Source: Verrucomicrobiota bacterium
Lineage (GTDB): Bacteria; Verrucomicrobiota; Verrucomicrobiia; Palsa-1439
NCBI GenBank assembly: GCA_037146675.1
Contig: JBAWWR010000002.1
Span: forward strand, 1 to 58,184
Length of the DNA: 58,184 nucleotides
Reading direction: 5' to 3'
Shown here: positions 23,299 through 41,882 of the stretch, in pieces
Numbering within the stretch: position 1 is the first letter of the stretch
Layout: each line of letters starts with the position of its first letter
Notes under the pieces: generated by a model
Told to the model about the DNA's origin: nothing
Seen by the model: only the letters and a program-made list of their open reading frames with translations
Databases searched by the model: none
Program-made: the position numbers and the translations under genes

Positions 23299-23329
23299 CA
23301 ATCGGACCACATCCTGATTCTTTTGTAGG
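23299..23329 (-). promoter_or_regulatory. bipartite motif copy f (minus strand): CCTACA-N16-GTCCGATTG, with no annotated downstream gene
   Basis: The reverse complement of 23299-23329 reads CCTACAaaagaatcaggatgtgGTCCGATTG, with the same spacing as the + strand copies. It lies 59 nt from, and divergent to, copy a. Confidence 0.4.
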
Positions 23330-23388
23330 TCAAAAGCCCCACCCCAACCACGCGGTAATGCCGCGTCCGATGCAAGGTCGGACTAGGT

Positions 23389-23419
23389 CCTAGGAAAAAA
23401 ACGGATTCGCGTCCGATTG
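23389..23419 (+). promoter_or_regulatory. bipartite motif copy a: CCTAGG-N16-GTCCGATTG upstream of the ACT/alpha-glucan operon
   Basis: Reads CCTAGGaaaaaaacggattcgcGTCCGATTG and ends 137 nt before ATG 23556. Confidence 0.45.
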
Positions 23420-23555
23420 TACGAGGTAATCGGGACGGGTAGGGTATGACCGTTGCCAGTGAGGCGGTCAGAGTAAACACACAATCTCAAAGGGACTAAT
23501 CGATGCATGGAATTAACAGAACGCGCCGGCAGAATTTCACACGGACGGCGGGAGC

Positions 23556-23963
23556 ATGGTGAGCGCAACTCGGGAAATCGAAGTGCGGGTCCGCATTCCG
23601 CACGGCAAAAATGATGCGACGGATGTGCTGGCGCTGTTGGCGGAACACCAACTCCCGACGGTGACTCGGAGTTACACGACCGACAACACCGGGCTCATGC
23701 TCTTGCTGACCACCAACCAGCCGGAGGAAGTCCAGCGCGTGGTCCGTGCGGCCGGGTATCGGTGCGACTCACACGCGGTGATTTTGGTTGGGCCGACGTC
23801 GGCTCGACCGGGCGCGGCCGCCCGGCTACTGGGAGATCTGAAGCGGCAAGGGGTGAATATTCAGTATTCGTATCTGTCCGCAATCGATCCCGAGCATTGT
23901 TATCTGGTCTTCAAAGCTGCGACCGATGAGCAAATGTTGAAAGCGATGGCGGTGGCGAATTGA
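23556..23963 (+). CDS. small ACT-like regulatory-domain protein (tentative)
   Basis: 135 aa in two beta-alpha-beta-beta-alpha-beta-like halves (IEVRVRIPHGKNDATDVLALLAEH... and VILVGPTSARPGAAARLLGDLKRQGVNIQYS). It is the first gene after motif copy a. The family call is weak. Confidence 0.55.
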   Translation: MVSATREIEVRVRIPHGKNDATDVLALLAEHQLPTVTRSYTTDNTGLMLLLTTNQPEEVQRVVRAAGYRCDSHAVILVGPTSARPGAAARLLGDLKRQGVNIQYSYLSAIDPEHCYLVFKAATDEQMLKAMAVAN

Positions 23964-24006
23964 ACCGGCCGACGCCAGCTGGCTTGGAACTAACAGTTAG
24001 GAATTT

Positions 24007-25167
24007 ATGAAGATTGCGATGTTTACGTGGGAAGCGTTGCACGGGTGGGCGGTTGGCGGCGTGGCGGCGCATGTGACGGAGTTGGCGGCGGCGCAGCACC
24101 GTCAGGGCCACGAGGTGCACGTGTTCACCCGGCCGACCTACGGGACCGGCGGCCTCGCCTGCCACGATGGCGTCTGGTACCACTATTGCCCGCACAAACT
24201 GGCCGACAACTTCGTGGACGAGATTCAGGAAATGAACCGGTCGTTTGTTTGGCACTTCCTGCAACACGAGGATGCGCACGGGCATTACGATGTGGTGCAC
24301 GCGCACGACTGGCTGGCATCCAATGCGATGGTGTGGATCAAGCAAAGCCGGCCCGATCACCGGGCGGTGTTAACCATGCACTCGACCGAGTACGGCCGGT
24401 GCGGCAACAATTTCTACGGCGGCGCCTCGGCGCGCATCAGCGACCACGAGCGCCACGGTACCTACTGCGCCGACCGAGTGGTGGCGGTGAGCCACACGCT
24501 CAAACGCGAAGTGATGTGGATCTACAACCTCCCCGATGCTAAGTGCTGGCCGATCTATAACGGCGTGCCGTACCGGAAGTTCGACGGCTGGCTCGACCCG
24601 AGCGCAATCAAAGCCCGATATGGAATCGGGCCGATGGATCCGACGGTCATGTTTTGCGGCCGGCTGGCGATTCAAAAGGGACCGGATTTGTTGCTGGAGG
24701 CCATCCCCGGCTTGTTGCGGCATTATCCGCAGGCGAAGTTCATCATTGCCGGTGAAGGCCATATGCGCAGCGCCTTGGAGCAGCGCGCCCGGCAGCTGAA
24801 TGTGAACCACGCTATCCGCTGGTTCGGCATGCTGAACAGCCAATTGCACACTGAATTATTCCGCGCCTGCGACGTAGTCTGCGTGCCGAGCCGCAACGAG
24901 CCGTTCGGCATCGTGGTGCTGGAGGCGTGGGCCGCCGGCAAGCCGGTTGTCGCGACTAATCACGGCGGTCCCGGCGAGTTTGTCTGGCACGACGTGAACG
25001 GACTCAAGATTGATCCGACGGTTGAGTCGGTCGGCTGGGGGCTGGGCACGTTGTTCACCAACTGGGAAAAGGCGCGTTGGATGGGGCGCAACGGGCGCCT
25101 CGCCACCGAGACCGCCTTCACTTGGGACAAGATCGCGGACAGCACTCTCGACCTTTACCGGTCATAA
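24007..25167 (+). CDS. GT4/GT5-type alpha-glucan glucosyltransferase (glycogen synthase-like or GlgM-like)
   Basis: MKIAMFTWE...GGVAAHVTELA...GHEVHVFT at the N-terminus and NEPFGIVVLEAWAAGKPVVATNHGGPGEFV (E-x7-E region) at the C-terminus. It is 386 aa and lacks the KTGGL motif of classical bacterial GlgA. Confidence 0.8.
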   Translation: MKIAMFTWEALHGWAVGGVAAHVTELAAAQHRQGHEVHVFTRPTYGTGGLACHDGVWYHYCPHKLADNFVDEIQEMNRSFVWHFLQHEDAHGHYDVVHAHDWLASNAMVWIKQSRPDHRAVLTMHSTEYGRCGNNFYGGASARISDHERHGTYCADRVVAVSHTLKREVMWIYNLPDAKCWPIYNGVPYRKFDGWLDPSAIKARYGIGPMDPTVMFCGRLAIQKGPDLLLEAIPGLLRHYPQAKFIIAGEGHMRSALEQRARQLNVNHAIRWFGMLNSQLHTELFRACDVVCVPSRNEPFGIVVLEAWAAGKPVVATNHGGPGEFVWHDVNGLKIDPTVESVGWGLGTLFTNWEKARWMGRNGRLATETAFTWDKIADSTLDLYRS

Positions 25168-25173
25168 ATCGGA

Positions 25174-25566
25174 ATGAAACCACCAACCAAAACAGGAGCA
25201 GTCGCAATGAAAAAACTGATCGCCAGTAAGAAAACCAGCCAAGCCACCGAGGAATCTGCGAGCTGGGACAACCCGCTTACCGAATTTAAAATCAACCTAG
25301 CCAGTGCGCAAATGGTCGCAGTTGCCGGCACATTCAACGGGTGGGATCCAAGTCGGACGCCGCTGCGCAATGCCGGTGGTGGCGTCTGGCGCGTCTTTCT
25401 GGCACTCAAGCCGGGTAAGCACAAGTACCGCTATGTCGTGGATGGGAAATGGCAGGAGGATCCGGCCGCCAAGGAGTTTGCGACCAATCCGTTTGGCGGG
25501 CATGATTCGGTGCTGACGGTTGCCGTCGCAACGCGCCGGGAAGGGCCGATAGAGCTGGCGGCCTAA
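25174..25566 (+). CDS. stand-alone glycogen-binding CBM48 / AMPK-beta-like domain protein
   Basis: VAVAGTFNGWDPSRTPLRNAGGGVWRVFLALKPGKHKYRYVVDGKWQEDP is the classic CBM48 pattern. There is no signal peptide. Confidence 0.75.
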   Translation: MKPPTKTGAVAMKKLIASKKTSQATEESASWDNPLTEFKINLASAQMVAVAGTFNGWDPSRTPLRNAGGGVWRVFLALKPGKHKYRYVVDGKWQEDPAAKEFATNPFGGHDSVLTVAVATRREGPIELAA

Positions 25567-25570
25567 GGCA

Positions 25571-27577
25571 TTGATTTCCTTAAATCGGCCCATGAAACGC
25601 TTATCGGCATCTGTCGCGACTGCTTTGCCGCCATCGCGGGTGTCACCGGCGACGGCATCGGCAATCAGTCTCCTGACCAAGGAAGACTTGGACCGGTTTG
25701 CCGCCGGCGTACATTCGAGTTTGTACACCAAGCTTGGCGCGCACCCGGTCAGCTTGCACGGCGTGACGGGCGTGTGCTTCGCGGTCTGGGCGCCGCAGGC
25801 GACGGAAGTGTCGGTCGTCGGCGATTTCAACCGGTGGATGACTGGCGCCCATTGTTTGCAACGCTGGCGCGATTCAGGAGTTTGGGAAGCTTTCGTGCCG
25901 GACGTGGCGTGCGGCGCGAACTACAAGTTTCGTCTCACGACGGCGGCCGGCAACGTCGTGGAAAAATCCGATCCGTTTGCGTTTCACACCGAGGTGCCGT
26001 CGCGGACCGCGTCGGTGGTGTGGGATTTGGATTACAAGTGGGGCGATGCGGCTTGGCTGAAACAGCGGCGCCGGCGCGATTGGCGGGTGGAACCGGTGTC
26101 AATCTACGAGGTGCACATCGGTTCATGGATGCGCGTGCCGGAGGAAAATAATCGCTGGCTGACTTACCGGGAACTGGCGGAGCCATTGGCCGCGTATGTT
26201 CGGCAACAGGGGTTCACCCATGTGGAATTTCTACCGCTGGCTGAACATCCATTTTACGGTTCGTGGGGCTACCAGCCGACGGGTTTTTTTGCGCCGACCA
26301 GCCGGTATGGCACGCCCCAGGATTTTATGTATCTCATCGATTACCTGCACCAGCAGGGCATCGGCGTGATTTTTGACTGGGTGCCGCTGCATTTTCCGTA
26401 TGACGGGCACGGCCTGGCGAAGTTTGACGGCAGCTGTTTATTTGAGCACGCCGACCCGCGCAACCATCATCATCCGCAGTGGGGCAGCGTGATGTTCGAC
26501 TACGAACGGCCCGAGGTGCGGAGTTTTCTGTTGAGCAACGCGCTCTATTGGTTGCGCCGGTACCACGTGGATGGTTTGCGGGCCGACGCGGTGTCGTACA
26601 TGCTGTACCGGGATTATGGCCGCCGCCCGGGGCAGTGGAGCGCGAACCGGCACGGCGGCCGCGAAAATTTGGAGGCGGTGGCCTTGTTGCAATATTTGCA
26701 CGAGGAGATTGCTGCGGAGTTTCCCGATGTGTTGACCTGTGCGGAGGAAGCGACCGCTTACCCGCAAGTCTCGCACCCGGCGCACGCGGGCGGTCTGGGT
26801 TTTACATTCAAGTGGGACATGGGTTGGATGCACGACACCTTGGAGTACATGGGGAAGCCGTTCCATGCGCGACGGGGCCAATTGAACAAGCTGACGTTCC
26901 GCCAGCTGTACGCCGGGGCGGAGAACTTCGTGCTGCCGCTGTCGCACGACGAGGTGGTGCATCTCAAATGCTCGTTGTTAAATAAAATGCCCGGCAACCA
27001 GTGGGACAAGTTTGCCGGGTTGCGCTTGCTCTACAGCTACATGTACGCCCAGCCCGGCAAGAAACTGCTCTTCATGGGCGGCGAGTTTGGCCAGCACCGC
27101 GAGTGGAACCACGACCGCAGTCTCGACTGGCATCTGCTGAATGACCCGGCGCACCGTGGCATCCAGCAATGGGTGCGCGACCTCAACCGGGCGTACACGC
27201 GGTTACCGGCCTGGCACGCGGGCGACTGCCAGCCGTCCGGATTTGAATGGATTGATTGCCACGATCACACCAATCAGGTTTTGACTTTTCTGCGCAAAGG
27301 CCGTGACGACCAGCAAGCAATCCTTGTGGTCTGCCATTTTTTACCGGGCGTGCTGCACAACTATCGCATCGGCGTTCCGTGGCCGGGGTTGTGGCGCGAA
27401 CTGCTCAACAGCGACGCCCGCGACTACGGTGGCAGCGGCACTAGTAACAACGGCGGCGCCCAAACCGAGGCGCGCGGTTGCCATGGCCGGCCGCACTCGC
27501 TGAATCTCACCGTGCCACCGTTGGGCACGGCATTCTTTGTGTACGAACCGGCAATGGAGGAACCTGCTCATGGCTGA
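25571..27577 (+). CDS. glgB: 1,4-alpha-glucan branching enzyme (GH13_9)
   Basis: An N-terminal CBM48 (FAVWAPQATEVSVVGDFNRW) followed by the GH13 regions DWVPLHF, GLRADAV, AEE and SHDE. The start is uncertain: TTG at 25571 or ATG at 25592. Confidence 0.9.
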   Translation: MISLNRPMKRLSASVATALPPSRVSPATASAISLLTKEDLDRFAAGVHSSLYTKLGAHPVSLHGVTGVCFAVWAPQATEVSVVGDFNRWMTGAHCLQRWRDSGVWEAFVPDVACGANYKFRLTTAAGNVVEKSDPFAFHTEVPSRTASVVWDLDYKWGDAAWLKQRRRRDWRVEPVSIYEVHIGSWMRVPEENNRWLTYRELAEPLAAYVRQQGFTHVEFLPLAEHPFYGSWGYQPTGFFAPTSRYGTPQDFMYLIDYLHQQGIGVIFDWVPLHFPYDGHGLAKFDGSCLFEHADPRNHHHPQWGSVMFDYERPEVRSFLLSNALYWLRRYHVDGLRADAVSYMLYRDYGRRPGQWSANRHGGRENLEAVALLQYLHEEIAAEFPDVLTCAEEATAYPQVSHPAHAGGLGFTFKWDMGWMHDTLEYMGKPFHARRGQLNKLTFRQLYAGAENFVLPLSHDEVVHLKCSLLNKMPGNQWDKFAGLRLLYSYMYAQPGKKLLFMGGEFGQHREWNHDRSLDWHLLNDPAHRGIQQWVRDLNRAYTRLPAWHAGDCQPSGFEWIDCHDHTNQVLTFLRKGRDDQQAILVVCHFLPGVLHNYRIGVPWPGLWRELLNSDARDYGGSGTSNNGGAQTEARGCHGRPHSLNLTVPPLGTAFFVYEPAMEEPAHG

Positions 27578-28760
27578 AGTTTATCACGCGCTGGGATTGA
27601 ACATGCACCAGCCGCTCGGCAATCTGGCCGCGCTACACAATTCGTCGGAACGCTGGGAGGCCAAGCAGATTCTGTGGTGCTACGACCGGCCGACGCGGAT
27701 GCTCGAGGGCTACGAGGACATTGCCCGCTTGCACATGGATTTTTCCGGCACGCTCTTGAAACAACTCGAAGACCCCGCGATCCGCGAGACGTTTGGCGAT
27801 GTCGTCAACATCGCCGGCTTTCTCGACCGGTACCGGCGATCTAATATCGAGTTTGTTGGGACCGGTCTGTTTCACCCGGTTTATCCGCTGATCCCGGCGC
27901 AGGACTGGGATGCGCAGACTGAGTGGTGGCTTGGCTTGGGCCAGCAGTTGTTGGGGCGCGATCACTTTGCCGGTTTCTGGCCGCCGGAGATGGGGTTCTG
28001 CATGGAGATGATTCCGATGCTGGCCCGGCACGGTTACCGGTATGTGATTGTGGATTGCTGGTACATCAAGCCGAAACGCCCGATGCGCTGGGAGGAATTG
28101 CGCTACCGGCCGTACATCGCCAGGTATGGCGGCGCGGAGATCGTGGTCATCCCGCGGGATCGGGAACTATCGATCGCGCAACTGGCCGGGTTGGATCCAG
28201 GTTGGTTTCAGTACGAGTTGCAGCAGCGCACGAAGAACTGCGATTTCCCAGCATTGGTCACGACGTGGAGCGACGGCGAGAACGGCGGCTGGTTTCGGAC
28301 GACGTGTTTGGAAAGCGGATTCTGGGGGTTCTTCTATCGGCCGCTGTTGGACCGGTACCGGGCCGGCACGCTCGGATTCACTCCGATTTACATCAGCGAA
28401 TTCCTGAAAAAATATCCGCCGACCGAGGAAGTCGAAATCCACCGGGGCGCGTGGAACACGGATCACCATTGGGGCGGGGATTTTACGCAGTGGACCGGCT
28501 CGCTCGTACAGAAGCGCGGGCTCGACGAAATTCGCAACGCCAGCGCCTACTACCAGCAGGTCAAACGCACCTGCGACCAGCGCCAGCTCAACGGCAACGG
28601 CGCGGAGATCCGCCAGCTGATCATGAGCGCGTATGACCGGATCCTGACGGCGGAGACGAGCTGCAATTTCTACTGGGGCAGCCGCTGGGTGCACCGGTCA
28701 TTCGATGACTTGGAACAGGCGTACTATCTGCTGGATACCGCGATGGAGAAACTGAAATGA
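27570..28760 (+). CDS. glycoside hydrolase family 57 protein
   Basis: MAEVYHALGLNMHQPLGN (GH57 HQP motif), FWPPEMGF (nucleophile Glu region) and WSDGENGGWF (acid/base Asp region). ATG at 27570 overlaps the glgB stop. Confidence 0.8.
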   Translation: MAEVYHALGLNMHQPLGNLAALHNSSERWEAKQILWCYDRPTRMLEGYEDIARLHMDFSGTLLKQLEDPAIRETFGDVVNIAGFLDRYRRSNIEFVGTGLFHPVYPLIPAQDWDAQTEWWLGLGQQLLGRDHFAGFWPPEMGFCMEMIPMLARHGYRYVIVDCWYIKPKRPMRWEELRYRPYIARYGGAEIVVIPRDRELSIAQLAGLDPGWFQYELQQRTKNCDFPALVTTWSDGENGGWFRTTCLESGFWGFFYRPLLDRYRAGTLGFTPIYISEFLKKYPPTEEVEIHRGAWNTDHHWGGDFTQWTGSLVQKRGLDEIRNASAYYQQVKRTCDQRQLNGNGAEIRQLIMSAYDRILTAETSCNFYWGSRWVHRSFDDLEQAYYLLDTAMEKLK

Positions 28761-30037
28761 TTATTTACAATCTCTTTCCATTGTTGGCCGGGCCGTTCGC
28801 CAAGTGGGACGAACACTTTGAACGCGCGGCGGCGATGAGCTTTGACTGGGTTTTCGTGAATCCGATCCAGTATCCCGGCTATTCCGGCAGCTTATATTCG
28901 ATTGCCTACCATTTCCGGTATCACCCCCGGTTGTTGGATTCCGCCAGCAGTCTTACCGAGGAAGAACAGGTCCGCCAGATGGTCGCGCAGGCGCACAAGC
29001 GCGGCTTGAAGATGATGATTGATCTGGTGATCAACCACTGCGCCTTTGACGCGCCGCTGACCAAGAAACATCCCGAATGGTTTAAGCACGTGAACGGCCG
29101 GCTGGCGCATCCGTCCTGCAAACACGGAGACCAAGTCGTGGAGTGGGGAGATCTCGTGCAGTTTGACCACCGCCATACTCGCGACCGGGAAGGTTTGTAC
29201 CGGTATTGCCTCCGGATGGTGGACCATTTGCTGGAGCTCGGATTCGACGGTTTTCGCTGCGATGCCGCGTACCAGTTGCCGGGCGATTTTTGGCACCGGC
29301 TCATCGCGGAAGTGAAGGCGCGCCAACCGGCGATCGTGTTCGCGGCCGAGACGCTCGGCTGTACCGCCGACCAGACTAAGGAGACCGCGCGGGCGGGCTT
29401 CGACTACATTTTCAACAGCGCCAAGTACTGGGATTTCAATGAGCCGTGGTTGATCGAGCAGTACGAATTGACCCGCGAAATCGTGCCCTCAATCGCGTTC
29501 CCGGAAAGTCATGACACCGACCGGCTGGCGGCGGAATTGAATGGCAACGTGGCGGCGTTGAAGCAGCGCTATCTGTTTGCGGCGTTGTTTTCTGCCGGCG
29601 TGATGATGCCGGTTGGATTCGAGTTCGGATTTCGCAAACGGCTGCACGTGGTCAACAGCCAGCCGACCGACTGGGAGACAACCGATATCGACTTACGGCC
29701 GTTCATCACCGCCGTCAACCGCATCAAACGCGAGTACCCGCTATTTCAGGAAGAATGTCCGTTGAGCGTCCTGCCGTGTCACAATTCGAATGTCCTCCTG
29801 CTCTGGCAAGCCAGCACGCGCAGCCGGTACGAGTCGCTGCTCATTCTCAACAAGGACATCCACAATCATCAAGATTTCACGACGGATCATTTCCGGCACT
29901 ATCTGCAGGCCGGCGCGCCGTTGCACGATGTCTCGCCGGAGTATCAGTTGGAATATATTCATGAACCCTTTCACTACGCACTGCGCCCTGGTCAGGGCAT
30001 TGTGCTGGTGACAACCCGCGATGGAGGTCGCTTATGA
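28757..30037 (+). CDS. GH13 catalytic-core protein resembling GlgE maltosyltransferase, without the GlgE N-terminal domains
   Basis: Contains DLVINHCA, KKHPEWFKH..G.LAH (compare the GlgE KHPEWFHHRPDGTIAH block as I remember it), GFDGFRCDAAY, VFAAETLG and FPESHDTDR. It is 426 aa. ATGA overlap on both sides. Confidence 0.7.
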   Translation: MIIYNLFPLLAGPFAKWDEHFERAAAMSFDWVFVNPIQYPGYSGSLYSIAYHFRYHPRLLDSASSLTEEEQVRQMVAQAHKRGLKMMIDLVINHCAFDAPLTKKHPEWFKHVNGRLAHPSCKHGDQVVEWGDLVQFDHRHTRDREGLYRYCLRMVDHLLELGFDGFRCDAAYQLPGDFWHRLIAEVKARQPAIVFAAETLGCTADQTKETARAGFDYIFNSAKYWDFNEPWLIEQYELTREIVPSIAFPESHDTDRLAAELNGNVAALKQRYLFAALFSAGVMMPVGFEFGFRKRLHVVNSQPTDWETTDIDLRPFITAVNRIKREYPLFQEECPLSVLPCHNSNVLLLWQASTRSRYESLLILNKDIHNHQDFTTDHFRHYLQAGAPLHDVSPEYQLEYIHEPFHYALRPGQGIVLVTTRDGGRL

Positions 30038-31494: not shown

Positions 31495-31521
31495 GTGACG
31501 ATAAATTTGGGATGACAACGA

Positions 31522-33207: not shown

Positions 33208-33262
33208 TGTTGCGCGACCCAAAAAATCCCAGCCGGCGGAACAATCGCCGGCAGGTTGGTGA

Positions 33263-34324
33263 ATGAACGCTCCTCAACAATCTGCTGAGCCCGAGCCGCG
33301 GATGATGATGTGGCGCGGCGACGAAGCCCGGTATCTGCGCTTGTTGGCGTGGATTACCGACTACATTTACACCGTTGCGATTACCAACGGGCAGCCGGTC
33401 AAAACCACGCACAGCCCGGCTTGCCTGACCATCACCGGCTACAGCGTCGAGGAATATGCCGCCAATCCGGCGCTGTGGATTGAGATGATTCACCCGGCCG
33501 ACCGCGACGTGGTGATGTCCCAAGCCGCCACCGCGTTGACCGGGTTGACGCCCACGCCTGTCGAGCATCGGATCATCCGGAAAGACGGCACTCTCCGCTG
33601 GCTGCGTAATACTATTGTGACGGAGAAAGACACCGCCGGCTGTGTGGTGGGCTACGATGGTGTCATCACTGACGTCACCGAGCGCAAGCGATTGGAGCGC
33701 GGGCTTCAGGAAATCAGCGACCGGGAACAATGCCGGATTGGACAGGAACTGCATGACGGTCTCGCGCAGAATTTGATTGCGGCGGCTTTCGTCGCCAATG
33801 CGCTCAAGTTCGATTTGCAAACACGGGCGGTACCGGAAGCCCGGCAAGCCGATGATCTGGCGCAATTGATTGACCAAGCTATTTCCCAAGCCCGGCAGTT
33901 TGCGCGTGGGCTGTATCCCGCCCAGTTGGAAAACGGCGATCTGGAGTCGGCGCTACACGATTTGGCCGGGCATGTGAGTGATCTGTACGGCGTGTGTTGC
34001 AACTTGCACACGCGGCAGCCGGCGCGCATTGGAGACCGGCTGGCGGCCAGCAATCTCTACCGCATCGCCCAAGAAGCGGTCGCCAACGCCGTCCACCACG
34101 GGCAAGCGAAACAAATCGATATCAACCTGACGACTGATGACGGTTCCGTGGTGTTGCAGGTTGCCGACAATGGTACCGGTCTGCCCGAGCCGCTGCCAGT
34201 CACACCGGGATTGGGGATTCACATTATGCATTACCGGGCCCAGAGCATCGGCGGCCGGTTGGAAATTCGCCGCCAGCCCCAAGGCGGCACTCTCGTCGCC
34301 TGTATTAGGAGATCGTTGCAATGA
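33263..34324 (+). CDS. PAS / HisKA_3 histidine kinase (soluble)
   Basis: A PAS domain ([11 protein letters not shown]...GTLRW), the H-box [12 protein letters not shown], and a HATPase (VADNGTGLP...GLGI). It is a paralogue of the C-terminal half of the gene at 20114-22342. Confidence 0.85.
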
Positions 34325-35010
34325 TTAAAAAACAGCCGTCGCCATTCCACCAGCCACGGGTCGCCCAGATTCTGATTGTGGACGACCATCCAATGGTGCG
34401 GGAACGACTGGAGGAAGTCATCCGCCGGCACGCCGACCTCCACGTGTGCGGTCAGACTGGCGACGCGACACACGCCCGGCAATTGATTGAGACGGCCAAA
34501 CCGGATCTGGCGATTGTGGACATTGCATTAAAACAATCGGACGGACTCGATTTGATCAAAGACCTGCGGGTGCAGGCTCCGCAGTTGCTGATTCTCGTGG
34601 TTTCCATGTACGAGGAATCGCTGTATGGCGAGCGCGCGTTGCGTGCCGGCGCCCACGGCTACATCAATAAACAGGAAGCCACGCGCAACATCGTGACGGC
34701 AATCCGCCGCATCTTGAACGGTGAAACCTACATCAGCGAGCAGCTGGCCCAGACTCTGGCCGCGCGAGTGGTGGGTCGACCGGCAGTCAAACCCACGACC
34801 GCGTTGAGCGCGTTGAGCGACCGGGAGCTCCAAGTGTTCACGCTGATTGGCGAAGGCCACACCGTCAGCCATGTGGGCGCCATTCTCCACGTGGCCAACA
34901 GCACCGTTGAGACGCACCGCGATCGCATTCGCGAGAAGCTGAATTTGCCGGATGCCAACGCTGTCTTGCGGGCCGCGATTGCCTGGCGACAGACCGCCGC
35001 CGCCGCGTAA
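34321..35010 (+). CDS. NarL/FixJ-family response regulator
   Basis: Contains ILIVDDHPMVRERL, LAIVDIAL, and the LuxR HTH LSDRELQVFTLIGEGHTVSHVGAILHVANSTVETHRDRIREKL. ATGA overlap with its kinase. It is a paralogue of 22339-23031. Confidence 0.9.
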   Translation: MIKKQPSPFHQPRVAQILIVDDHPMVRERLEEVIRRHADLHVCGQTGDATHARQLIETAKPDLAIVDIALKQSDGLDLIKDLRVQAPQLLILVVSMYEESLYGERALRAGAHGYINKQEATRNIVTAIRRILNGETYISEQLAQTLAARVVGRPAVKPTTALSALSDRELQVFTLIGEGHTVSHVGAILHVANSTVETHRDRIREKLNLPDANAVLRAAIAWRQTAAAA

Positions 35011-35155
35011 ACACCGCTGGCCGGGCCGGTGCTCGGTGCCATTCACATAGTTGTGTCCCGTTTGTCGGGGACACCAGATTCCTACCGCTCACCCGACAGA
35101 CAATCACTGCACTCCCGCCTAGAGTTTAGGCGTAGCAAGGAAGGAGCGCAGGATT

Positions 35156-35965: not shown

Positions 35966-36089
35966 TTATCAGGGTGGCGCAATTTCCCGTGACCGGTTCA
36001 ATGGTTTTTCGGGTGCGGGTACTTGCTAAATCCGCGAAATGGTGCAGTTTAACCGCAGGTCGAGAATTTTAGATTTGGAGTGCTAGGCC

Positions 36090-37259
36090 GTGCGGTTGCA
36101 AACGCCAAACGAGCAATCAGTGAGCGCGAAAGGTTCGCCCGCCACTGTGGTGGCTAACGAACAGCAGAGCGTTGCTGATAGATTTCACAGCTTGCTGGAG
36201 TCGGCGCCGGACGCGATGGTGATTGTCGATCAGCAAGGGCGGATGATGTTGGTCAATGCACAGACAGAACAGTTGTTCGGCTACGGCCGCGCCGAACTGC
36301 TTGGGCAGCCGGTTGAGATGCTCCTCCCGGAGCGTTTCCACGCCGGTCATCCCGCCCGGCGCGCAGCGTACTACGCTAATCCGGGGACGCGGCCGATGGG
36401 TGGCAAGGGTGAGTTTTTTGCGCGGCGCAAAGACGGCTCTGAGTTGCCGGTGGATATCAGTCTCAGCCCGTTGCGCACGGCGGAAGGCTTGCTGGTGATT
36501 AGCGCAATTCGCGACGCGACTGAACGTAAGCGCGTCGAGCGGGCGCTTCGGCACGCCAAGGACGACGCCGATGCGGCCAATAAAGAGCTGGAGGCCTTTT
36601 GCTATTCAGTCGCGCACGATCTCCGAGCGCCGCTCCGGGCCGCCGATGGATTTAGTCGGATTCTACTCGATAACCAGAGCGCCAAGCTCGATGCGGTGGA
36701 CCGGGATTATTTGCAACGGATTCGCAACGCCAGCCAGCAAATGGGCCGGCTGATTGACGACCTCCTGAAACTCTCGCGCACCACGCGCGGGGAACTCGTC
36801 CGGGAAGAGACCAATCTCAGCCAGTTGGCGCGCGCGATTGTGACCGGGTTGCAGGAGTTGCAGCCGGACCGCGTCGTCGACTGGCGCATCGCGGATGGCC
36901 TGACCGCCAAAGTCGATCCGCGCCTCTTGCGCGTGGCGCTGGAAAACCTGTTCAGCAACGCGTGGAAGTTCACCGCCAAACACCCGCGCGCCGGCATCGA
37001 ATTTGGCGCGGTACAGCAAAACAACGAGCGCGTCTTTTATGTGCGGGACGACGGGGCTGGGTTTGATATGACCTATATCAAAAAAATGTTTGGCGCCTTC
37101 CAGCGGTTTCATTCGCCCCGCGAGTTCGAAGGGACCGGCATCGGGCTGGCGACTGTCCAGCGCATCATTCGCCGGCACGGTGGGCGCATCTGGGCGGAAG
37201 GCGCGGTCGAGGCCGGGGCGACGTTTTATTTCACGCTGGCTGGAGAACCGGGGCCATGA
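36090..37259 (+). CDS. PAS / HisKA / HATPase histidine kinase (soluble)
   Basis: GTG start preceded by GGAG. Contains a PAS domain (PDAMVIVDQQGRMMLVN), the H-box FCYSVAHDLRAPLRA, the N-box NAWKF, and G-boxes DDGAGF and GTGIGLA. Confidence 0.85.
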   Translation: MRLQTPNEQSVSAKGSPATVVANEQQSVADRFHSLLESAPDAMVIVDQQGRMMLVNAQTEQLFGYGRAELLGQPVEMLLPERFHAGHPARRAAYYANPGTRPMGGKGEFFARRKDGSELPVDISLSPLRTAEGLLVISAIRDATERKRVERALRHAKDDADAANKELEAFCYSVAHDLRAPLRAADGFSRILLDNQSAKLDAVDRDYLQRIRNASQQMGRLIDDLLKLSRTTRGELVREETNLSQLARAIVTGLQELQPDRVVDWRIADGLTAKVDPRLLRVALENLFSNAWKFTAKHPRAGIEFGAVQQNNERVFYVRDDGAGFDMTYIKKMFGAFQRFHSPREFEGTGIGLATVQRIIRRHGGRIWAEGAVEAGATFYFTLAGEPGP

Positions 37260-37283
37260 GTGCAATTCATTGGAGGAAGAATT

Positions 37284-38441
37284 ATGAATAAGCCAATCCG
37301 TGTTTTAATCGTGGAGGACTCCGAGGACGATACGCTGCTGTTGCTCCACGAATTGCGCCGGGCCGGTTACGATCCCATCTACCGGCGGGTGGAGACGGCC
37401 GGTGACATGGTTGCCGCGTTGGAGCACGAGCCGTGGGACATTGTCACTGCGGACCATACGATGCCGCATTTCAATTCCACCGAAGCGTTGCAGATTCTCC
37501 AGAAATGGAATCGCGACATCCCGTTCATCGTCGTCTCCGGGACCATTGGCGAAGACGCGGCCGTGGCGGCGATGAAGGCCGGCGCGCAAGATTACCTGAT
37601 CAAAGGCAACCTGGCGCGGTTCGTGCCGGCAGTCGAACGCGAAATCGTCGACGCGGGGCATCGCCGGCGGCAGCGCGAGCTCGAATGGAAGTTGCTCGCC
37701 CAACACGAACAGCTGCACATCGCCCGTGAAATCCAGCAGCGTTTGTTTCCGCCGTCTGAGCTGCGGCTGGAGAACTTTGAAATCGCCGGCATGTCGATCC
37801 CGGCTGATGAGACCGGCGGCGATTACTTCGATTACATCCCGATGCCGGAAAAACATCACGGCGTCGTCATTGGCGACATTACCGGGCACGGCCTTGGGGC
37901 GGCGCTCTTGATGGCCGAGGTGCACGTCTGTTTCCGGACGCTGGCGGAGCACTGCATCGATGCCAGTGAGATTTTTCAGCGCGCTAACCAACTGACGAAA
38001 GAGGATTTCGGCAACTATCGTTTTCTGACGGTCTTGTTCGCGTGCCTGCATCCGCCGACGCGGTCACTGGTTTACCTCAACGCCGGGCATCCGACCGGCT
38101 ACGTGTTGAACCGGGACGGCACTGTCCGCGTCGAGTTGAAAAGCTCCGATATGCCCTTGGGTGTCCATCCGCTCGCGAACTTCGCACCGACCCGGTCCGT
38201 GCAGTTGAAAACGGACGATGTGGTGGTGTTGTTGACGGATGGCGTCCTGAGCGCCTTCGTCACGCCGGACGATCCAACCGGGGACCGGCAGGCGCTCTCC
38301 ATTGTGCGCCGGCATCGCGACCAATCGGCGATCCAGATCGTGGAGGAGCTCTGCGGCAGCGCGCACGCGGCCGACACCTCCAGCGTCGAGGAGCAGGACG
38401 ACATCACGGCGGTGGTGCTCAAGGTCAAAGCGGCGGCCTGA
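37284..38441 (+). CDS. response regulator with PP2C/SpoIIE-type Ser/Thr phosphatase output (RsbU/RsbY-like)
   Basis: A REC domain (VLIVEDSEDD, IVTADHTMP, YLIKG) followed by PP2C motifs GGDYFDY, VIGDITGHGLGAALLM, LLTDGV and QDDITAVVLKV. ATG at 37284 follows GGAGGAAG. Confidence 0.85.
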   Translation: MNKPIRVLIVEDSEDDTLLLLHELRRAGYDPIYRRVETAGDMVAALEHEPWDIVTADHTMPHFNSTEALQILQKWNRDIPFIVVSGTIGEDAAVAAMKAGAQDYLIKGNLARFVPAVEREIVDAGHRRRQRELEWKLLAQHEQLHIAREIQQRLFPPSELRLENFEIAGMSIPADETGGDYFDYIPMPEKHHGVVIGDITGHGLGAALLMAEVHVCFRTLAEHCIDASEIFQRANQLTKEDFGNYRFLTVLFACLHPPTRSLVYLNAGHPTGYVLNRDGTVRVELKSSDMPLGVHPLANFAPTRSVQLKTDDVVVLLTDGVLSAFVTPDDPTGDRQALSIVRRHRDQSAIQIVEELCGSAHAADTSSVEEQDDITAVVLKVKAAA

Positions 38442-38468
38442 GCCGGCCGCGCCGTATCCGTGTTTCGA

Positions 38469-38499
38469 CCTACAAGATTATCAGGGTGCAGTCCGATTG
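38469..38499 (+). promoter_or_regulatory. bipartite motif copy e: CCTACA-N16-GTCCGATTG upstream of the REC-kinase pair
   Basis: Reads CCTACAagattatcagggtgcaGTCCGATTG and ends 225 nt before ATG 38724. Confidence 0.4.
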
Positions 38500-38723
38500 T
38501 GTTTGGTTTGGTTCGGCCTATGTTACCGGTAGATGAATGCAACCCGGAACATAGCCCCGCGAGTGGGCAGTGATGGTTCGGCGATTCCGTGGTTGAGCCG
38601 GGCGGGTGGCCGCAACACGAACGGTCGGCGTTGGCTGCGGGCCGGCACCGGTCACGGGTTGGAGGTCGAATCTGAACCGGGTCAGGGCCACTGCTGGCCG
38701 CAGTTACCCACAGGCGAGGTGTT

Positions 38724-39176
38724 ATGAACAACGATTGCATTCTCTACGCAGAAGACGATCCCAACGACGCGTTCTTTCTTCAGCACGCGTTCGATGAAGT
38801 GGGTATCCACAACCCACTGCAGATCGTCAAGGATGGGCAAGAGGCGATTGATTACCTCGCAGGGGTGGGGTTGTTTACCGACCGGCGCCGGTATCCGCCG
38901 CCTTGCCTCATCCTGCTCGATTTGAAGATGCCGCGCAAAAGCGGGATCGAAGTGCTGGCGTGGATCCGGGCGCAGCCGGCGATGTGTTGCGTGCCGGTCC
39001 TTGTTTTATCGGCCTCCTGCCTCGCGAGCGATTTGGAGAAAGCCAGTCTCCTCGGTGCCAATTCTTACATCATCAAACCCTTCTCGCTTGAGGAACGGGT
39101 TGAGTTCGCGCAGGCAATCCGGTCGTTCTGGCTCCACTTCCATTATCGTCCCGACCTCACCACGCTCGGAAAATAA
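38724..39176 (+). CDS. stand-alone receiver domain protein (Rcp/CheY-like)
   Basis: Contains ILYAEDDPNDAFF, LILLDLKMPRKSG, VLVLSAS and YIIKPF. Confidence 0.85.
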   Translation: MNNDCILYAEDDPNDAFFLQHAFDEVGIHNPLQIVKDGQEAIDYLAGVGLFTDRRRYPPPCLILLDLKMPRKSGIEVLAWIRAQPAMCCVPVLVLSASCLASDLEKASLLGANSYIIKPFSLEERVEFAQAIRSFWLHFHYRPDLTTLGK

Positions 39177-39209
39177 ACTGCACCCAACCAGTTCTAAAGA
39201 GAGACCACG

Positions 39210-40760
39210 ATGGCGCTGAAAAAACTGTTCCGGATTCTGTTGCAAGTCCAAGTCGTGTTAGCGCTGGTCGTGGTGCTGCTGATTGCCGCTATGTTCGCGA
39301 ACCAGAGAAGACTCAATCAGAGCCGGGAGCGGCAATTTCAAGCGGATGATCTGGCCGATGAACTGCGGCATAGTTCGGACGATCTCACGCGGATGACGCG
39401 CAGCTACGTGGTGACCGGCAATCCGGAATTTGAACGCCAATATTGGGCCGTCTTGGGTATTCGCGACGGCAAGCTCCCGCGCCCGGTGGCGTACGACCAG
39501 ATTTATTGGGAATTCGTTTCCGCCACCGGACAGAAGCCGTGTCCCGATGGTCCGCCCATTGCGTTCCGCGAGTTGCTGATTAAAAACGGCGTTACCGCCG
39601 CGGAGTTTCAAAAACTGGACGAGGCACAGCAATATTCGGATGCGCTCGTGACCACCGAACGGATTGCTATGAACGCGGTCAAAGGACTGTTTGCGGATGC
39701 CGCCGGTAACTTCACGGTGCAGAAAGAACCGGACCGCGCGTGGGCGTTGCAGTTGCTGTTTGATGAAGCTTACCACCAAACCAAAGCCAAGATCATGCGG
39801 CCGATTGCTGAATTCGATGTCCTGCTTGAGGCGCGGACTGCCGGGGTGGCCGCCCTCTATCGCCAGCGCGCAGTGTATTTACTCAGCGCTGCGAGCGCGC
39901 TCATCTGCCTCCTCTTGGCCATCTTCGGATTGTCATTTGTACTCGTCGAGCGCCAGATTGACTGCCGCGAGCGCGCCGAGGAGGCGCGGCGCACAAGTGA
40001 GGAGCGGCTCGCTGAGGCCAACGCCACATTGGAGCGCGCTGTCCAGCAGCGCACCGCCACGCTCAATGATCTGGTCAATGATCTGGAACATTTCTCCTAC
40101 AGCATCGTCCACGAAATGCGCGCGCCGTTGCGTGCGATGCGGGGGTTTGCGGAGTTGGTGCTGGCGCAATTCGGCGCCAATCCGCAGCTGGACCGCGATT
40201 ACCTGAAACGCATTGTCGATTCGGCCAAGCAGATGGACGACTTGATCAAGGACACGCTCATTTACTCGGGGACGCTGCGCGCCGAAATGCCGCTGGGGCC
40301 GGTGGAGCCGGCGGCGCTGCTGCAGGAGATGGTCGCGACGTATCCCAAGTTTCGAGCCGCGGTAGCCGACATCAGTATTGACGGCCCGCTACCACCGGTG
40401 CTGGCCAATCGCGCCGGCTTGGCGCGGTGTTTTTCCAACCTGCTTCGCAACGCCATTCAATTCACGCCGGCTGGCGTGCGGCCGCAGGTGCGGATTTCGG
40501 CGGAGACGCGCGGTGACTGGGTGCGGCTCTGGATCGCGGACAATGGCATCGGCATCGCGCCGGAGTTTCAGACGCGTATGTTTCAGGTATTCGAGCGCAC
40601 CAGTCGTGACGCTGCCGGGACCGGGATCGGCTTGGCGTTGGTGCACAAGATAGTCGCGCACATGCACGGGCGGGTCGGCGTGGAAAGTGAACTGGGCCAC
40701 GGCAGCCGGTTTTGGATTGAATTGCCACCGGCCGCCGCGCCGGCAGCGGCCGGTGGGTAG
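39210..40760 (+). CDS. membrane histidine kinase with a periplasmic CHASE3-like sensor
   Basis: Two transmembrane helices flank a roughly 180-aa extracytoplasmic region (RSYVVTGNPEFERQYW is a CHASE3-like phrase). The H-box is FSYSIVHEMRAPLRAM, and the HATPase has ADNGIGI and GTGIGLA. Confidence 0.85.
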   Translation: MALKKLFRILLQVQVVLALVVVLLIAAMFANQRRLNQSRERQFQADDLADELRHSSDDLTRMTRSYVVTGNPEFERQYWAVLGIRDGKLPRPVAYDQIYWEFVSATGQKPCPDGPPIAFRELLIKNGVTAAEFQKLDEAQQYSDALVTTERIAMNAVKGLFADAAGNFTVQKEPDRAWALQLLFDEAYHQTKAKIMRPIAEFDVLLEARTAGVAALYRQRAVYLLSAASALICLLLAIFGLSFVLVERQIDCRERAEEARRTSEERLAEANATLERAVQQRTATLNDLVNDLEHFSYSIVHEMRAPLRAMRGFAELVLAQFGANPQLDRDYLKRIVDSAKQMDDLIKDTLIYSGTLRAEMPLGPVEPAALLQEMVATYPKFRAAVADISIDGPLPPVLANRAGLARCFSNLLRNAIQFTPAGVRPQVRISAETRGDWVRLWIADNGIGIAPEFQTRMFQVFERTSRDAAGTGIGLALVHKIVAHMHGRVGVESELGHGSRFWIELPPAAAPAAAGG

Positions 40761-40768
40761 GATTAAGT

Positions 40769-40799
40769 CCTAGGTAACTTTCAGACTCGCGTCCGATTG
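40769..40799 (+). promoter_or_regulatory. bipartite motif copy b: CCTAGG-N16-GTCCGATTG upstream of the DUF2934 gene
   Basis: Reads CCTAGGtaactttcagactcgcGTCCGATTG. It starts 9 nt after the kinase stop and ends 52 nt before ATG 40851. Confidence 0.45.
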
Positions 40800-40850
40800 C
40801 GCACCTCGCAAGTCAGTGCGATTGTGTTGTGTACCAGTAGGAAGAACACT

Positions 40851-41099
40851 ATGAAAGATAAGCGCGCAACTCAGATTCATCCGATTGAAGAGCAAATTCA
40901 GCAACGGGCGTACGAGTTGTACCTGAAACGTGGCTGTCAGCCCGGCAAGGCCATCGACGATTGGCTGCAAGCCGAGTACGAACTGCGGCAGCTGCCCATC
41001 GCCAAGCTGGCCGCGCTCAAGCCGGTGAGCTACTCCACCAGTCGCGGCCTGCAAGCGAGCGCCTTGCTCGCGTTGGTGCAAGCCGCCATGCTGGTGTGA
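40851..41099 (+). CDS. DUF2934-family small protein
   Basis: MKDKRATQIHPIEEQIQQRAYELYLKRGCQPGKAIDDWLQAEYEL matches the DUF2934 RAYELY..RG...G...DW..AE pattern. The RBS is GTAGGAAG. The track start at 40797 is an upstream in-frame alternative. Confidence 0.7.
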   Translation: MKDKRATQIHPIEEQIQQRAYELYLKRGCQPGKAIDDWLQAEYELRQLPIAKLAALKPVSYSTSRGLQASALLALVQAAMLV

Positions 41100-41147
41100 C
41101 CGCCGGCGGTAACGCCCGGTCACTGTTGATTCCCACCTCGTTTACCA

Positions 41148-41175
41148 GCCGGCACTGATCTTCTGCCGGCTTTCC
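41148..41175 (+). terminator. candidate intrinsic terminator after the DUF2934 gene
   Basis: GCCGGCA-ctgatcttc-TGCCGGC (7-bp stem) followed by TTTCC. The U-tract is short. Confidence 0.4.
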
Positions 41176-41212
41176 GCCATCAGACTTTGTTGTATGAAAG
41201 TTTCAACGTGTC

Positions 41213-41221
41213 GTCCGATTG
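41213..41221 (+). promoter_or_regulatory. GTCCGATTG box copy d (upstream hexamer position not conserved: TGTATG)
   Basis: Exact 9-mer, 144 nt upstream of the REC gene ATG at 41365. The AT-rich patch (aaagttt) sits at the same relative position as in the other copies. Confidence 0.35.
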
Positions 41222-41364
41222 CGCGGTGGCGCCGGCGCTCGTACTGTTCCGGTAATGAGTCAGCGCCGGCTAATTCACAAAGCTGAATCCTGCCACTACT
41301 TGTCGGGCGGATATCTGCCGTTAGCGGCGCTGGCTCACTCCGCGAACCAGGAAAGAAATTTGCC

Positions 41365-41799
41365 ATGCAAAACTTGAGCACTCAAACGCAGCCAGTCGGA
41401 TGCACCGTGCTGGCGATTGATGACGATGCACTGGTGTTGGCGCTGATGCACGCGGTGCTGGGCGCGGCGGGCTTCAACGTCTTGACCGCCCGCAGCGGCG
41501 CGCAGGGATTGGAGTTGTTGCGCCGGGCGGCCACCGGAGTGCAGGTGGTGTTACTGGATTATCAGATGCCGGTCAGCAACGGCGCGGAGTTGTTGCCGGC
41601 GGTGCGCCGCTTGGCACCGGCGGCGAAGGTGCTGGGCGTTTCGGGTACCAATCTCGACCAGCTCGCGCCGGCGTATCGCACGGGCGTGGATCAACTGCTG
41701 AGCAAACCGTTCACCAATGCCAAGCTGGTGGCCGCAGTGTCGGCGCTGTTGCCGGTAAACACGGCGGCAGTCCGTCCCGCACTAGGACTTTTTACCTAG
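41365..41799 (+). CDS. stand-alone receiver (REC) response regulator, paralogue of 16987-17547
   Basis: Contains VLAIDDDALVL, VVLLDYQMP and LLSKPF. The block LAPAAKVLGVSG is identical to the paralogue. Confidence 0.85.
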   Translation: MQNLSTQTQPVGCTVLAIDDDALVLALMHAVLGAAGFNVLTARSGAQGLELLRRAATGVQVVLLDYQMPVSNGAELLPAVRRLAPAAKVLGVSGTNLDQLAPAYRTGVDQLLSKPFTNAKLVAAVSALLPVNTAAVRPALGLFT

Positions 41800-41825
41800 G
41801 TATAAAACAGACCGTAGTCCGATTG
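41795..41825 (+). promoter_or_regulatory. bipartite motif copy c: CCTAGG-N16-GTCCGATTG upstream of the structured leader and 60-aa ORF
   Basis: Reads CCTAGGtataaaacagaccgtaGTCCGATTG. The hexamer contains the TAG stop of the preceding REC gene. Confidence 0.45.
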
Positions 41826-41882
41826 CGCCACTGCCGGCAATCAAGCATATGTAGCTCAGTAGACGCTGTACCGTTCTTTCTG

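Follow-up and report, generated by a model that had tools for sequence, protein, structure and literature searches.

Two regulators of the NarL/FixJ family offer the closest described parallels to the element considered here, which is built around the nine-base box GTCCGATTG and recurs in 58,184 nucleotides of DNA from a Verrucomicrobiota bacterium (the window, that is, the whole stretch analyzed; positions 1 to 58,184 of contig JBAWWR010000002.1, assembly GCA_037146675.1). The RcsB/RcsAB box of enterobacteria has the consensus TN(G/A)GAN4TC(T/C)NA, TaAGaatatTCctA, and the DosR/DevR box, TTSGGGACTWWAGTCCCSAA, belongs to the dormancy regulon of Mycobacterium tuberculosis. A dyad that abuts the −35 hexamer, together with another one farther upstream, is the arrangement normally found where an activator contacts RNA polymerase at a partial −35, and the family of NarL, RcsB and DevR mostly activates from such positions. 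Among sigma factors, −10 elements with GTCCGA or CGAT are known for the extracytoplasmic function (ECF) type from mycobacteria and corynebacteria, and the sigma-28 (FliA/SigD/WhiG) promoter reads TAAA-N15-GCCGATAA. The best account of the element, and one that we regard as rather likely to be correct on the evidence of its sequence, is a sigma-70-type promoter of the activator type that would depend on a response regulator.

In the alignment described below, the element contains a distal dyad, TAGGAC-N3-GTCCTA, centered near −67, and a proximal dyad, ATCrG-N8-CCGA(T), centered near −43.5, which abuts or overlaps the predicted −35; both centers are counted from a predicted start at about +41 from the first base of the box. 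The right arm of the distal dyad is the CCTAGG hexamer singled out in an earlier reading of this DNA, hereafter the original prediction. The distal dyad resembles the RcsB box in that TAGGA..TCCTA (in soil contigs of Candidatus Udaeobacter, TAAGGATTTTTCCTA) provides nearly the same inverted half-sites beside a weak −35, and RcsB chains are among the PDB matches of RR1, one of the regulators encoded in the window (E = 1e-21). However, the inner spacing in the lake lineage of the window is N5 (TAGGA-N5-TCCTA) rather than N4, and the recognition helix differs from that of RcsB; because of these two mismatches, the element is not classified as an RcsB box. It further differs in the extra dyad, ATCrG-N8-CCGAT, that is fused to the −35, and the organisms and target genes are unrelated.

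The likeness to the DosR/DevR system extends from the GGAC-N4-GTCC core, which is seen in a related contig (L085) as the perfect dyad ATCGGAC-ggct-GTCCGAT, to the arrangement as a whole, namely a NarL-family regulator with HisKA_3 kinases, tandem sites of which the proximal one lies over the −35, a regulator operon that is autoregulated (in our case by prediction), and a regulon that includes a storage-compound pathway; DevR is also among the PDB matches (3c3w, E = 4e-22). The differences lie in the flanking bases, in the residues of the recognition helix and in the left arm, which here is mostly CAG and not CGG, and there is no sign of a link to hypoxia. ECF promoters (e.g., GGAAC-N16-17-GTC/CGT) share with the element two blocks 16 nucleotides apart, the second starting with GTC, and an ECF operon of Udaeobacter carries the motif, whereas the element has no −35 of the AAC type, does not conserve the GT, possesses a separate core of TTG-N16-19-TAnnnT, and places both blocks within dyads. 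The sigma-28 promoter has in common with it a CCGAT core and an upstream block containing TA, but the spacing here is two nucleotides longer, a misfit on which this geometry was rejected; flagellar or developmental genes are absent, and a downstream −10 signal and the dyads are present.

The box and the element around it

Counted on both strands, the window contains seven exact copies of GTCCGATTG, starting at 23299 (minus), 23411 (plus), 34534 (minus), 38491 (plus), 40791 (plus), 41213 (plus) and 41817 (plus). The chance expectation is 0.87, and none of 100 dinucleotide-preserving shuffles reached seven, the maximum being four. The original prediction had listed six of these copies with correct coordinates and strands (sites f, a, e, b, d and c in the above order), missed the antisense copy at 34534-34542, and set the expectation at 0.4; the excess over chance is still significant at the recomputed value. 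Six of the seven copies are intergenic, as had been said of the six listed, and each is oriented to a downstream gene or open reading frame (ORF). With a non-coding share of about 9.8% under the gene model of this analysis, the probability that at least six of seven would be intergenic is 6e-6. The five copies on the plus strand are each followed by a gene on that strand, the distance from the end of the box to the start codon being 59-245 nucleotides, which corrects the earlier 52-246. In five copies, exactly as predicted, CCTASR (CCTAGG or CCTACA) lies 16 nucleotides 5′ of the box, where none is expected from 100 shuffles, and the AT-rich patch behind the hexamer is seen in six of six.

The copy at 34534-34542 lies on the minus strand inside the gene for a second regulator, RR2 (34321-35010), contrary to the claim that no coding sequence holds an exact copy. 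It encodes Q-S-D of the receiver domain, and an ortholog carries the 9-mer in the corresponding codons (L088, 3050); there are no other blocks and no −10-like hexamer, and the copy is not scored by a position weight matrix (PWM) of the motif. This copy therefore looks like a coding coincidence and not a site. The degenerate copies reported at 16808 and 23365 do exist, and they are not sites because all of the other blocks are missing. About 3 kb past the right end of the window, an eighth exact copy of GTCCGATTG (14045-14053 in the gene coordinates of L141) is intergenic with a correctly placed CGG; it lacks the hexamer, the AT patch and a −10-like hexamer, is followed by nonribosomal peptide synthetase and polyketide synthase genes, and is probably a chance match or a decayed site.

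Alignment of 26 sites, numbered from the first base of the box as 0, directly demonstrates a series of blocks at fixed spacing. Block 1 occupies −33 to −28 (T-a-g-G-a-c) and is followed by a T-rich triplet at −27 to −25, block 2 at −24 to −19 (G-T-C-C-T-A), the AT-rich patch at −16 to −10, block 3 at −11 to −7 (A-T-C-r-G), a variable segment of six unconserved bases at −6 to −1, the box GTCCGATTG at 0 to 8, and a pyrimidine at +9 in 24 of the 26 sites. Block 1 is the reverse complement of block 2, and block 3 that of the CCGAT of the box. In this register 70.9% of the cells are complementary, compared with 26-44% when the partner is slid by one to three columns, and the inverted-repeat half-sites expected of a NarL/FixJ site are thus present. 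The left-arm positions T-33 (18/26) and G-30 (23/26) are conserved though they lie outside every search pattern, and a further perfect dyad, CCTAGGAC-tga-GTCCTAGG, is found in L097 (L097c). The dyad pairs show no covariation beyond shuffles, as 36 of 500 shuffles get to the observed pairing and the covariation score is not significant; because the sequence is conserved without covariation, these are DNA dyads rather than RNA helices.

A positional −10 signal is equally evident downstream of the box. A hexamer nAnnnT starts at +28 to +31 in 20 of 25 sites, against a background of 17% in the same loci (binomial P = 9e-12), and the stricter TAnnnT does so in 11 of 25, against 1.9% (binomial P = 4e-13); no search pattern touches these positions. 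Among the other four-nucleotide offset windows from −60 to +70, the single comparable value comes from GATTGT inside the box itself, and as a control, nAnnnT is found in only five of 21 copies of GTCCGATTG that occur elsewhere or are chance-like. Given this −10-like hexamer, the invariant TTG of the box (positions 6-8) is taken as the start of a sigma-70-type −35, for which the predicted hexamer comprises positions 6-11 (TTGyrn) and reads TTGACA in L097a and TTGACC in L097b. The predicted spacer between −35 and −10 is 16-19 nucleotides, so that the features expected of a sigma-70-type promoter, that is, a TTG in the −35, a spacer and a −10 with A2 and T6, are all found. At most sites the −35 consists of TTG alone followed by non-consensus bases, and a scan with the sigma-70 consensus detected no other canonical promoter in these intergenic regions, which fits a partial −35 that needs an activator.

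From this arrangement we infer a transcription start at about +40 to +43 from the start of the box. No start codon lies nearer than about 26 nucleotides to the box end, and in the genes for cysteine-rich proteins of Udaeobacter and the ORFs behind sites f and e, the start codon is located 6-8 nucleotides past the predicted −10. These distances fit the predicted start at about +41, and the sequence suggests that the corresponding mRNAs are leaderless or nearly so.

DNA matches to the window were found in one metagenome-assembled genome (MAG; GCA_964588885.1) and several metagenome contigs, and the conservation of the element is observed directly in relatives, where all of its approximately 70 nucleotides are kept 5′ of orthologous genes whose proteins are 59-68% identical. 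The ACT-like protein encoded behind site a has few homologs (59-68% identity), and on the four relative contigs examined (including L085, L086 and L128) their genes are preceded by CCTAGA-N7-C(A/G)G-N6-GTCCGATTG within diverged flanks. Contig L097, which is syntenic with 38.4-41.2 kb of the window, carries the element in front of three units, namely a receiver-domain gene, another receiver gene with a kinase, and a DUF2934 gene. The element is thus kept both at the ACT/glycogen genes (L085, L086, L128) and at the DUF2934 gene (L097), for which such conservation had been proposed as a check. The motif is absent from the glycogen phosphorylase locus of other Verrucomicrobiota and Planctomycetota (80 loci, 1.2 Mb), and in these unrelated loci the PWM has no match above 12 bits, compared with 37-49 bits for the six window sites; the closest species-level relatives of the phosphorylase are 62-70% identical (unclassified, Opitutaceae, Verrucomicrobiota, Kiritimatiellota and Planctomycetota MAGs).

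A scan of a metagenome collection with one pattern, which fits seven of the nine sites then known, returned 44 loci. About two-thirds of these share extra context outside the pattern, ataAGGATTTTT before the hexamer, on soil contigs of about 55% GC, and the named relatives of the proteins on these contigs belong to Verrucomicrobia, Ca. Udaeobacter and Chthoniobacterales. The element is therefore also present in contigs of soil Chthoniobacterales and Ca. Udaeobacter, and, judged by sequence, is best described as common to the freshwater lineage and these soil bacteria. At sites found by orthology and not through the pattern, the first two bases of the box are CT (L134), CC (L136) or GC (L137, L140), and the hexamer reads CTTACC, CCGATC, CCTATC or TGTAAA, with CCGATTGT constant; outside the five CCTASR sites of the window, the hexamer variants include TGTATG, TGTAAA, CTTACA, CTTACC and CCGATC. 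The invariant core is CCGATTG(T), not GTC. The proposal that the motif is the signature of an uncharacterized regulon is thereby upheld, the motif being specific, tied to gene orientation, and conserved at orthologous promoters of diverged relatives; both of the mechanisms that accompanied this proposal are probably wrong.

A probable regulator-dependent promoter and its competitors

If the element is a promoter that depends on a response regulator, each copy would be a complete activator-dependent promoter of about 70 nucleotides. The last three bases of the box, TTG, would open a sigma-70-type −35, a −10 of the form TAnnnT or nAnnnT would follow after 16-19 nucleotides, and a dimeric regulator on both dyads would recruit RNA polymerase to this partial −35 promoter. 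The invariance of the 9-mer can be explained by the overlap of two constraints, the regulator half-site CCGA/T and the TTG of the −35, from which an invariant CCGATTG(T) is to be expected. The regulator would most likely be a phosphorylated response regulator of the NarL/FixJ type, for which the window provides two candidates. RR1 (22339-23031, plus strand), with a receiver and a GerE helix-turn-helix domain according to Pfam, is the last gene of a cluster at 16987-23031 immediately 5′ of sites f and a. RR2, likewise assigned to the NarL/FixJ family by Pfam, forms with a PAS-HisKA_3 kinase gene (33263-34324) a plus-strand pair at 33263-35010, which closes the run of same-strand genes led by site a. 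The PDB matches of RR1 and RR2 in phmmer include VraR, NarL, DevR and RcsB (E = 1e-21 to 7e-34).

Genes for regulators of this type are linked to the sites in relatives as well. The gene order around RR1 is the same in L086; in L088 the genes directly behind the motif are those for ACT, CBM48, kinase and regulator, so that only two genes separate the motif from the kinase and regulator; and in L136 a regulator with a similar recognition helix lies with CheB/CheR and PAS kinases beside motif sites and a sigma factor operon. NarL/FixJ regulators and HisKA_3 kinases thus adjoin sites or sit in a motif-led run in the window, L086, L088 and L136. The position of RR2 and its kinase at the end of the site-a run, like that of their counterparts in L088, would result in autoregulation, which is typical of two-component systems. 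We infer both the identity of the binding protein and its action as an activator rather than a repressor. The genes under its control would comprise the ACT-like gene and glycogen operon with their own kinase and regulator, three receiver-domain genes, a kinase gene, the DUF2934 gene and small ORFs, to which the soil relatives would add a small Cys-rich protein and an ECF sigma operon.

Several observations weigh against this explanation. The recognition helices of the regulators, KTIETHRANI and STVETHRDRI, are unlike those of DosR and RcsB; the likeness to the boxes of these proteins is therefore one of geometry and half-site and not an established equivalence. The inner spacing of the two dyads differs by one base (TAGG-N7-CCTA vs. 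TCrG-N8-CCGA), a difference that one rigid dimer would not easily accommodate, the proximal left arm in the lake lineage favors CAG over the symmetric CGG, and the distal left arm is poor in site e and in L085f. Site c lacks a strict −10, as do the metagenome matches L095 and L117, which may be chance matches. Finally, the ECF sigma operon of Udaeobacter itself carries the motif, which alone would normally suggest an autoregulated sigma factor.

Such a sigma factor is central to the explanation that CCTAGG/GTCCTAG is the −35 of an alternative ECF-type promoter, that GTCCGATTG holds its −10, and that transcription starts a few bases past the box. ECF sigma factors are commonly autoregulated (PMC7826278). 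Hexamer and box keep a constant distance of 16 nucleotides, with CCTASR-N16-GTC in five of the six window sites, and a candidate is at hand in the SigK-like ECF factor encoded behind the motif in Ca. Udaeobacter together with a small Cys-rich putative anti-sigma factor; the motif precedes this operon in L092, L118, L134 and L136, and its neighbors in L136 look like a stress set (CsbD, DUF892, PRC, DUF3309). We nevertheless consider this explanation quite unlikely. An invariant GTC/CGT core in the −10 and a specificity that tracks the sigma factor are not found, as orthologous sites have CT, CC or GC in place of the GT of GTC, with CCGATTGT fixed, and the hexamers CCTAGC, CTTACC and CCGATC stand before sigma genes with an identical predicted −35-recognition helix in region 4.2. 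An ECF promoter leaves unexplained the TAnnnT at +28 to +31, the TTGACA within or after the box, and the dyad symmetry of both block pairs, of which the two supposed promoter blocks are parts. The variation of GT and hexamer and the unexplained −10-like hexamer in 20 of 25 sites likewise disfavor the form given in the original prediction, an ECF-like promoter with CCTAGG as −35 and GTC in the −10.

A search for a co-occurring ECF sigma factor or regulator had also been proposed. It leads to the ECF sigma gene behind the motif in Udaeobacter and to the NarL/FixJ genes of the window, but in the lake-lineage DNA examined there is no homolog of either the Udaeobacter sigma factor or its Cys-protein. 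Pfam and NCBIfam scans of the larger ORFs of the window (a few small ORFs lay outside the scan) agree with the earlier statement that it holds no sigma factor gene, and an extension of about 9 kb to the right contains no further site and no sigma gene among its Pfam-annotated calls. The motif before the Udaeobacter operon is read as a sign that the operon belongs to the regulon. A second ECF geometry, with AGGACTT as −35, TCAG as −10 and the box as the 5′ end of the transcript, was rejected because the lake lineage conserves block 1 too poorly for this role and the +28 hexamer is again unexplained.

The same core promoter might instead be controlled negatively, the dyads being operators at which a dimeric repressor, bound on or next to the −35, blocks polymerase until a signal arrives. 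The dyads and their overlap with the −35 are the same as for an activator, and several reasonable −35/−10 pairs, such as TTGACA-N16-TATGGT in L097, might work unaided. This possibility is unlikely in our judgment, because the −35 is mostly a bare TTG with non-consensus bases, which is typical of activator-dependent promoters, the second site near −67 is at an activator-type position, and the family of the linked regulators generally activates from there. An action at the level of the transcript, in which the box and its partners would form hairpins in the 5′ leader or the box would be a 5′-terminal RNA signal, is very improbable. The block pairs are mutually complementary, and partial complements downstream of the box had been pointed out in sites a, b and c, but the sequence rather than the pairing is conserved, Rfam has no match in these regions (a tRNA is its sole match in the window), the predicted start lies 3′ of all blocks, and neither other sites nor orthologs retain the downstream complements. 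The other mechanism of the original prediction, an AT-rich patch serving as −10 with the box as operator or RNA element, is unsupported for similar reasons: there is no covariation, no conserved −35 lies at the right distance 5′ of the patch, and nAnnnT occurs within the patch in 12 of 25 sites, compared with 20 of 25 at +28 to +31.

The several copies, their imperfect palindromy and their intergenic location are also features of dispersed repeats without a regulatory role, such as repetitive extragenic palindromes (REP) or miniature inverted-repeat transposable elements (MITE). We regard this origin as hardly credible, since the blocks are separated by spacers of unrelated sequence, every copy faces a gene or ORF that follows it on the same strand, orthologous promoters retain copies at 59-68% protein identity and amid diverged flanks, and the constant distance of the −10 signal speaks for a function; membership in such a family had been named as a finding that would count against the regulon. 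Two further promoter geometries were discarded on inspection of the sites. A sigma-54 promoter, in which GG and GC elements are separated by exactly 10 nucleotides (TGGCAC-N5-TTGC), does not fit, because the aligned sites have no GG 12 nucleotides 5′ of the G of TTG, and a MerR-type promoter with the dyad in its spacer does not fit, because there is no conserved −35 at −40 to −35 relative to the box.

Sites and neighboring genes in the window

Site a (23378-23447, plus strand) is a complete element 5′ of the ACT-like gene (23556) and the glycogen operon. It consists of dyad 1 (TCGGACTAGGTCCTA, 23378-23392), the hexamer CCTAGG (23389-23394), the AT patch (23395-23401), CGG (23402-23404) and the box (23411-23419), with a predicted −35 TTGTAC (23417-23422), a predicted −10 TAGGGT (23440-23445) and a predicted start near 23451-23454; none of these blocks has been lost from its orthologs in L085, L086 and L128. 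The gene run behind it continues from the ACT-like gene to a GT4/GT5 glycogen synthase, a CBM48 protein, GlgB, a GH57 and an amylase-like protein, an unknown protein and glucan phosphorylase, and ends with the PAS-HisKA_3 kinase (33263) and the receiver-GerE regulator (34321). Back-to-back with site a, site f (23271-23340, minus strand) faces an 89-amino-acid (aa) ORF (22997-23266, minus) and comprises dyad 1 (23326-23340), the hexamer CCTACA (23324-23329), ATCAG (23314-23318) and the box (23299-23307), with TTGCGC (23296-23301) and GATGGT (23273-23278, minus strand) as predicted −35 and −10. The ATG of the ORF lies 6 nucleotides past this −10, and its transcript may therefore be leaderless. 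Sites equivalent to f are retained in L085 (3433, minus) and L086 (5845, minus), where they precede a divergent Pel9A-like beta-helix gene that is absent from the window. The signaling cluster at 16987-23031, 5′ of both sites, encodes a receiver-domain protein, a CheB-PAS-HisKA_2 kinase, a receiver-PAS-HisKA_3 kinase and RR1.

The remaining sites are all on the plus strand. Site e (38458-38527) precedes a 64-aa ORF (38533), a receiver-domain gene (38724) and a histidine kinase gene (39210), and contains CCTACA (38469-38474), ATCAG (38480-38484), the box (38491-38499), a predicted −35 TTGTGT (38497-38502) and a predicted −10 TATGTT (38519-38524); its ortholog at 315 of L097 has TTGACA and TATGGT in the latter two places. 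The kinase (39210-40760) had been described as a CHASE3 kinase, but Pfam detects HisKA and HATPase_c as its sole domains. Site b (40758-40827), 5′ of the DUF2934 gene (ATG at 40859), has dyad 1 TAGGATTAAGTCCTA (40758-40772), CCTAGG (40769-40774), TTCAG (40780-40784), the box (40791-40799), a predicted −35 TTGCGC (40797-40802) and a predicted −10 GATTGT (40820-40825), and the orthologous site at 4220 of L097 also stands before a DUF2934 gene. Site d (41180-41249), 5′ of a stand-alone receiver-domain gene (41365), has a weak hexamer, TGTATG (41191-41196), followed by TTCAA (41202-41206), the box (41213-41221), a predicted −35 TTGCGC (41219-41224) and a predicted −10 TACTGT (41242-41247). Site c (41784-41853), 5′ of a 60-aa ORF (42071-42253), has dyad 1 AGGACTTTTTACCTA (41784-41798), CCTAGG (41795-41800), AACAG (41806-41810), the box (41817-41825), a predicted −35 TTGCGC (41823-41828) and an approximate −10 only, CATATG or TATGTA within 41846-41853. 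A terminator-like hairpin with a T-run at 42389-42401, about 135 nucleotides past the 60-aa ORF, suggests from its position that this transcript would be short, about 550 nucleotides.

The small ORFs at 22997-23266 (minus; 89 aa) and 38533-38727 (plus; 64 aa) start 6-8 nucleotides past the predicted −10 of sites f and e, and neither is called as a gene in the deposited assembly. The latter overlaps the start of the receiver-domain gene (38724), and its counterpart in L097 is 22 aa long with only the first residues in common; both may be leader peptides or chance ORFs. Just 5′ of site e, a gene at 37260-38441 encodes a receiver domain joined to a PP2C (SpoIIE) phosphatase, an architecture shared with RsbY and other partner-switching phosphatases; the window contains neither a STAS partner nor an anti-sigma kinase for it. 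Farther downstream, a long plus-strand cluster (44507-56949) with genes for GT4 and GT2 glycosyltransferases, a Wzy-type polymerase or ligase, a methyltransferase and an epimerase contains no motif sites and probably serves the synthesis of a surface polysaccharide. At 16307-16382, a gene for tRNA-Glu (CTC) is found between a Mur ligase gene and the signaling cluster. The genes of the window are nearly all on the plus strand, and GC skew is positive across 1-58184, rising to about 0.25 past 52 kb.

Soil relatives and the meaning of the regulon

On the soil contigs, the motif precedes a gene for a small Cys-rich protein without a known family. In L092, L107/L118, L134 and L136, this gene is a paralog, and an ECF sigma gene either begins within it or follows directly, the operon being located at 8241-9236 in L118, 9632-10600 in L134 and 9625-10600 in L136, and present also in L092 and L107. 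The Cys-rich protein of these Udaeobacter operons has 110 aa and the pattern CxxC...CCPxxxC, belongs to no Pfam or NCBIfam family, and may be an unusual soluble anti-sigma factor. The sigma factor has 199 aa, and its best NCBIfam match, of the SigK type, is below the family cutoff. The 5′ region of the operon contains a conserved hairpin, atgcagtgagcag/ctgctcattgcat. A family of small Cys-rich proteins (126-190 aa; ...LDDQRFCRCCHKF..GRQIE..LVCPT..CSAT..DWVYPNE), represented at 1326-1706 of L127 and by about 80 homologs, was found only in Chthoniobacterales-like metagenome sequences and lies behind the motif on all contigs examined; its ATG or GTG is 6-7 nucleotides past the predicted −10, so that its genes are apparently leaderless. 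Beside the sigma operon of L136, the region 8100-20500 encodes DUF892, DUF3309, PRC-barrel and CsbD proteins, two MgtC proteins and a glutaredoxin, which are typical of general stress regulons, together with a CheB-CheR fusion, PAS kinases and a GerE-type regulator that resemble 16987-23031 of the window; it contains only two weak extra motif sites (8676 and 16367, both plus).

To the extent that the literature was searched, these uncultured freshwater and soil Verrucomicrobia have no described regulon, promoter architecture or pairing of a regulator with its site, and a search with the sequence itself found only primers. The kind of control proposed here is well known and indeed textbook; within the reach of the same searches, the motif, the gene set and the lineage are undescribed, and the value of the finding is mainly specific to this lineage. 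As a lesson of method, an invariant box can stem from two overlapping constraints rather than from one exotic recognition element.

The element of about 70 nucleotides would serve as a regulon signature that can be scanned for in MAGs and would list the genes that are co-regulated with glycogen storage. In Ca. Udaeobacter, which is one of the most abundant soil bacteria, such scans would tie a two-component pathway to an ECF sigma factor. Tentatively, and with more doubt than attaches to the promoter itself, the motif may mark a conserved, dormancy-like energy-reserve regulon of Chthoniobacterales-type Verrucomicrobia, including Ca. Udaeobacter, in which a phosphorelay of CheB/CheR and PAS kinases would lead to a NarL-type regulator and a two-tier cascade, analogous to DosR but separately evolved. 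If this is true, the NarL-type regulator, acting through tandem dyads joined to weak −35 hexamers, would switch on glycogen metabolism, single-domain receivers, DUF2934, small Cys-rich proteins and an ECF sigma factor.

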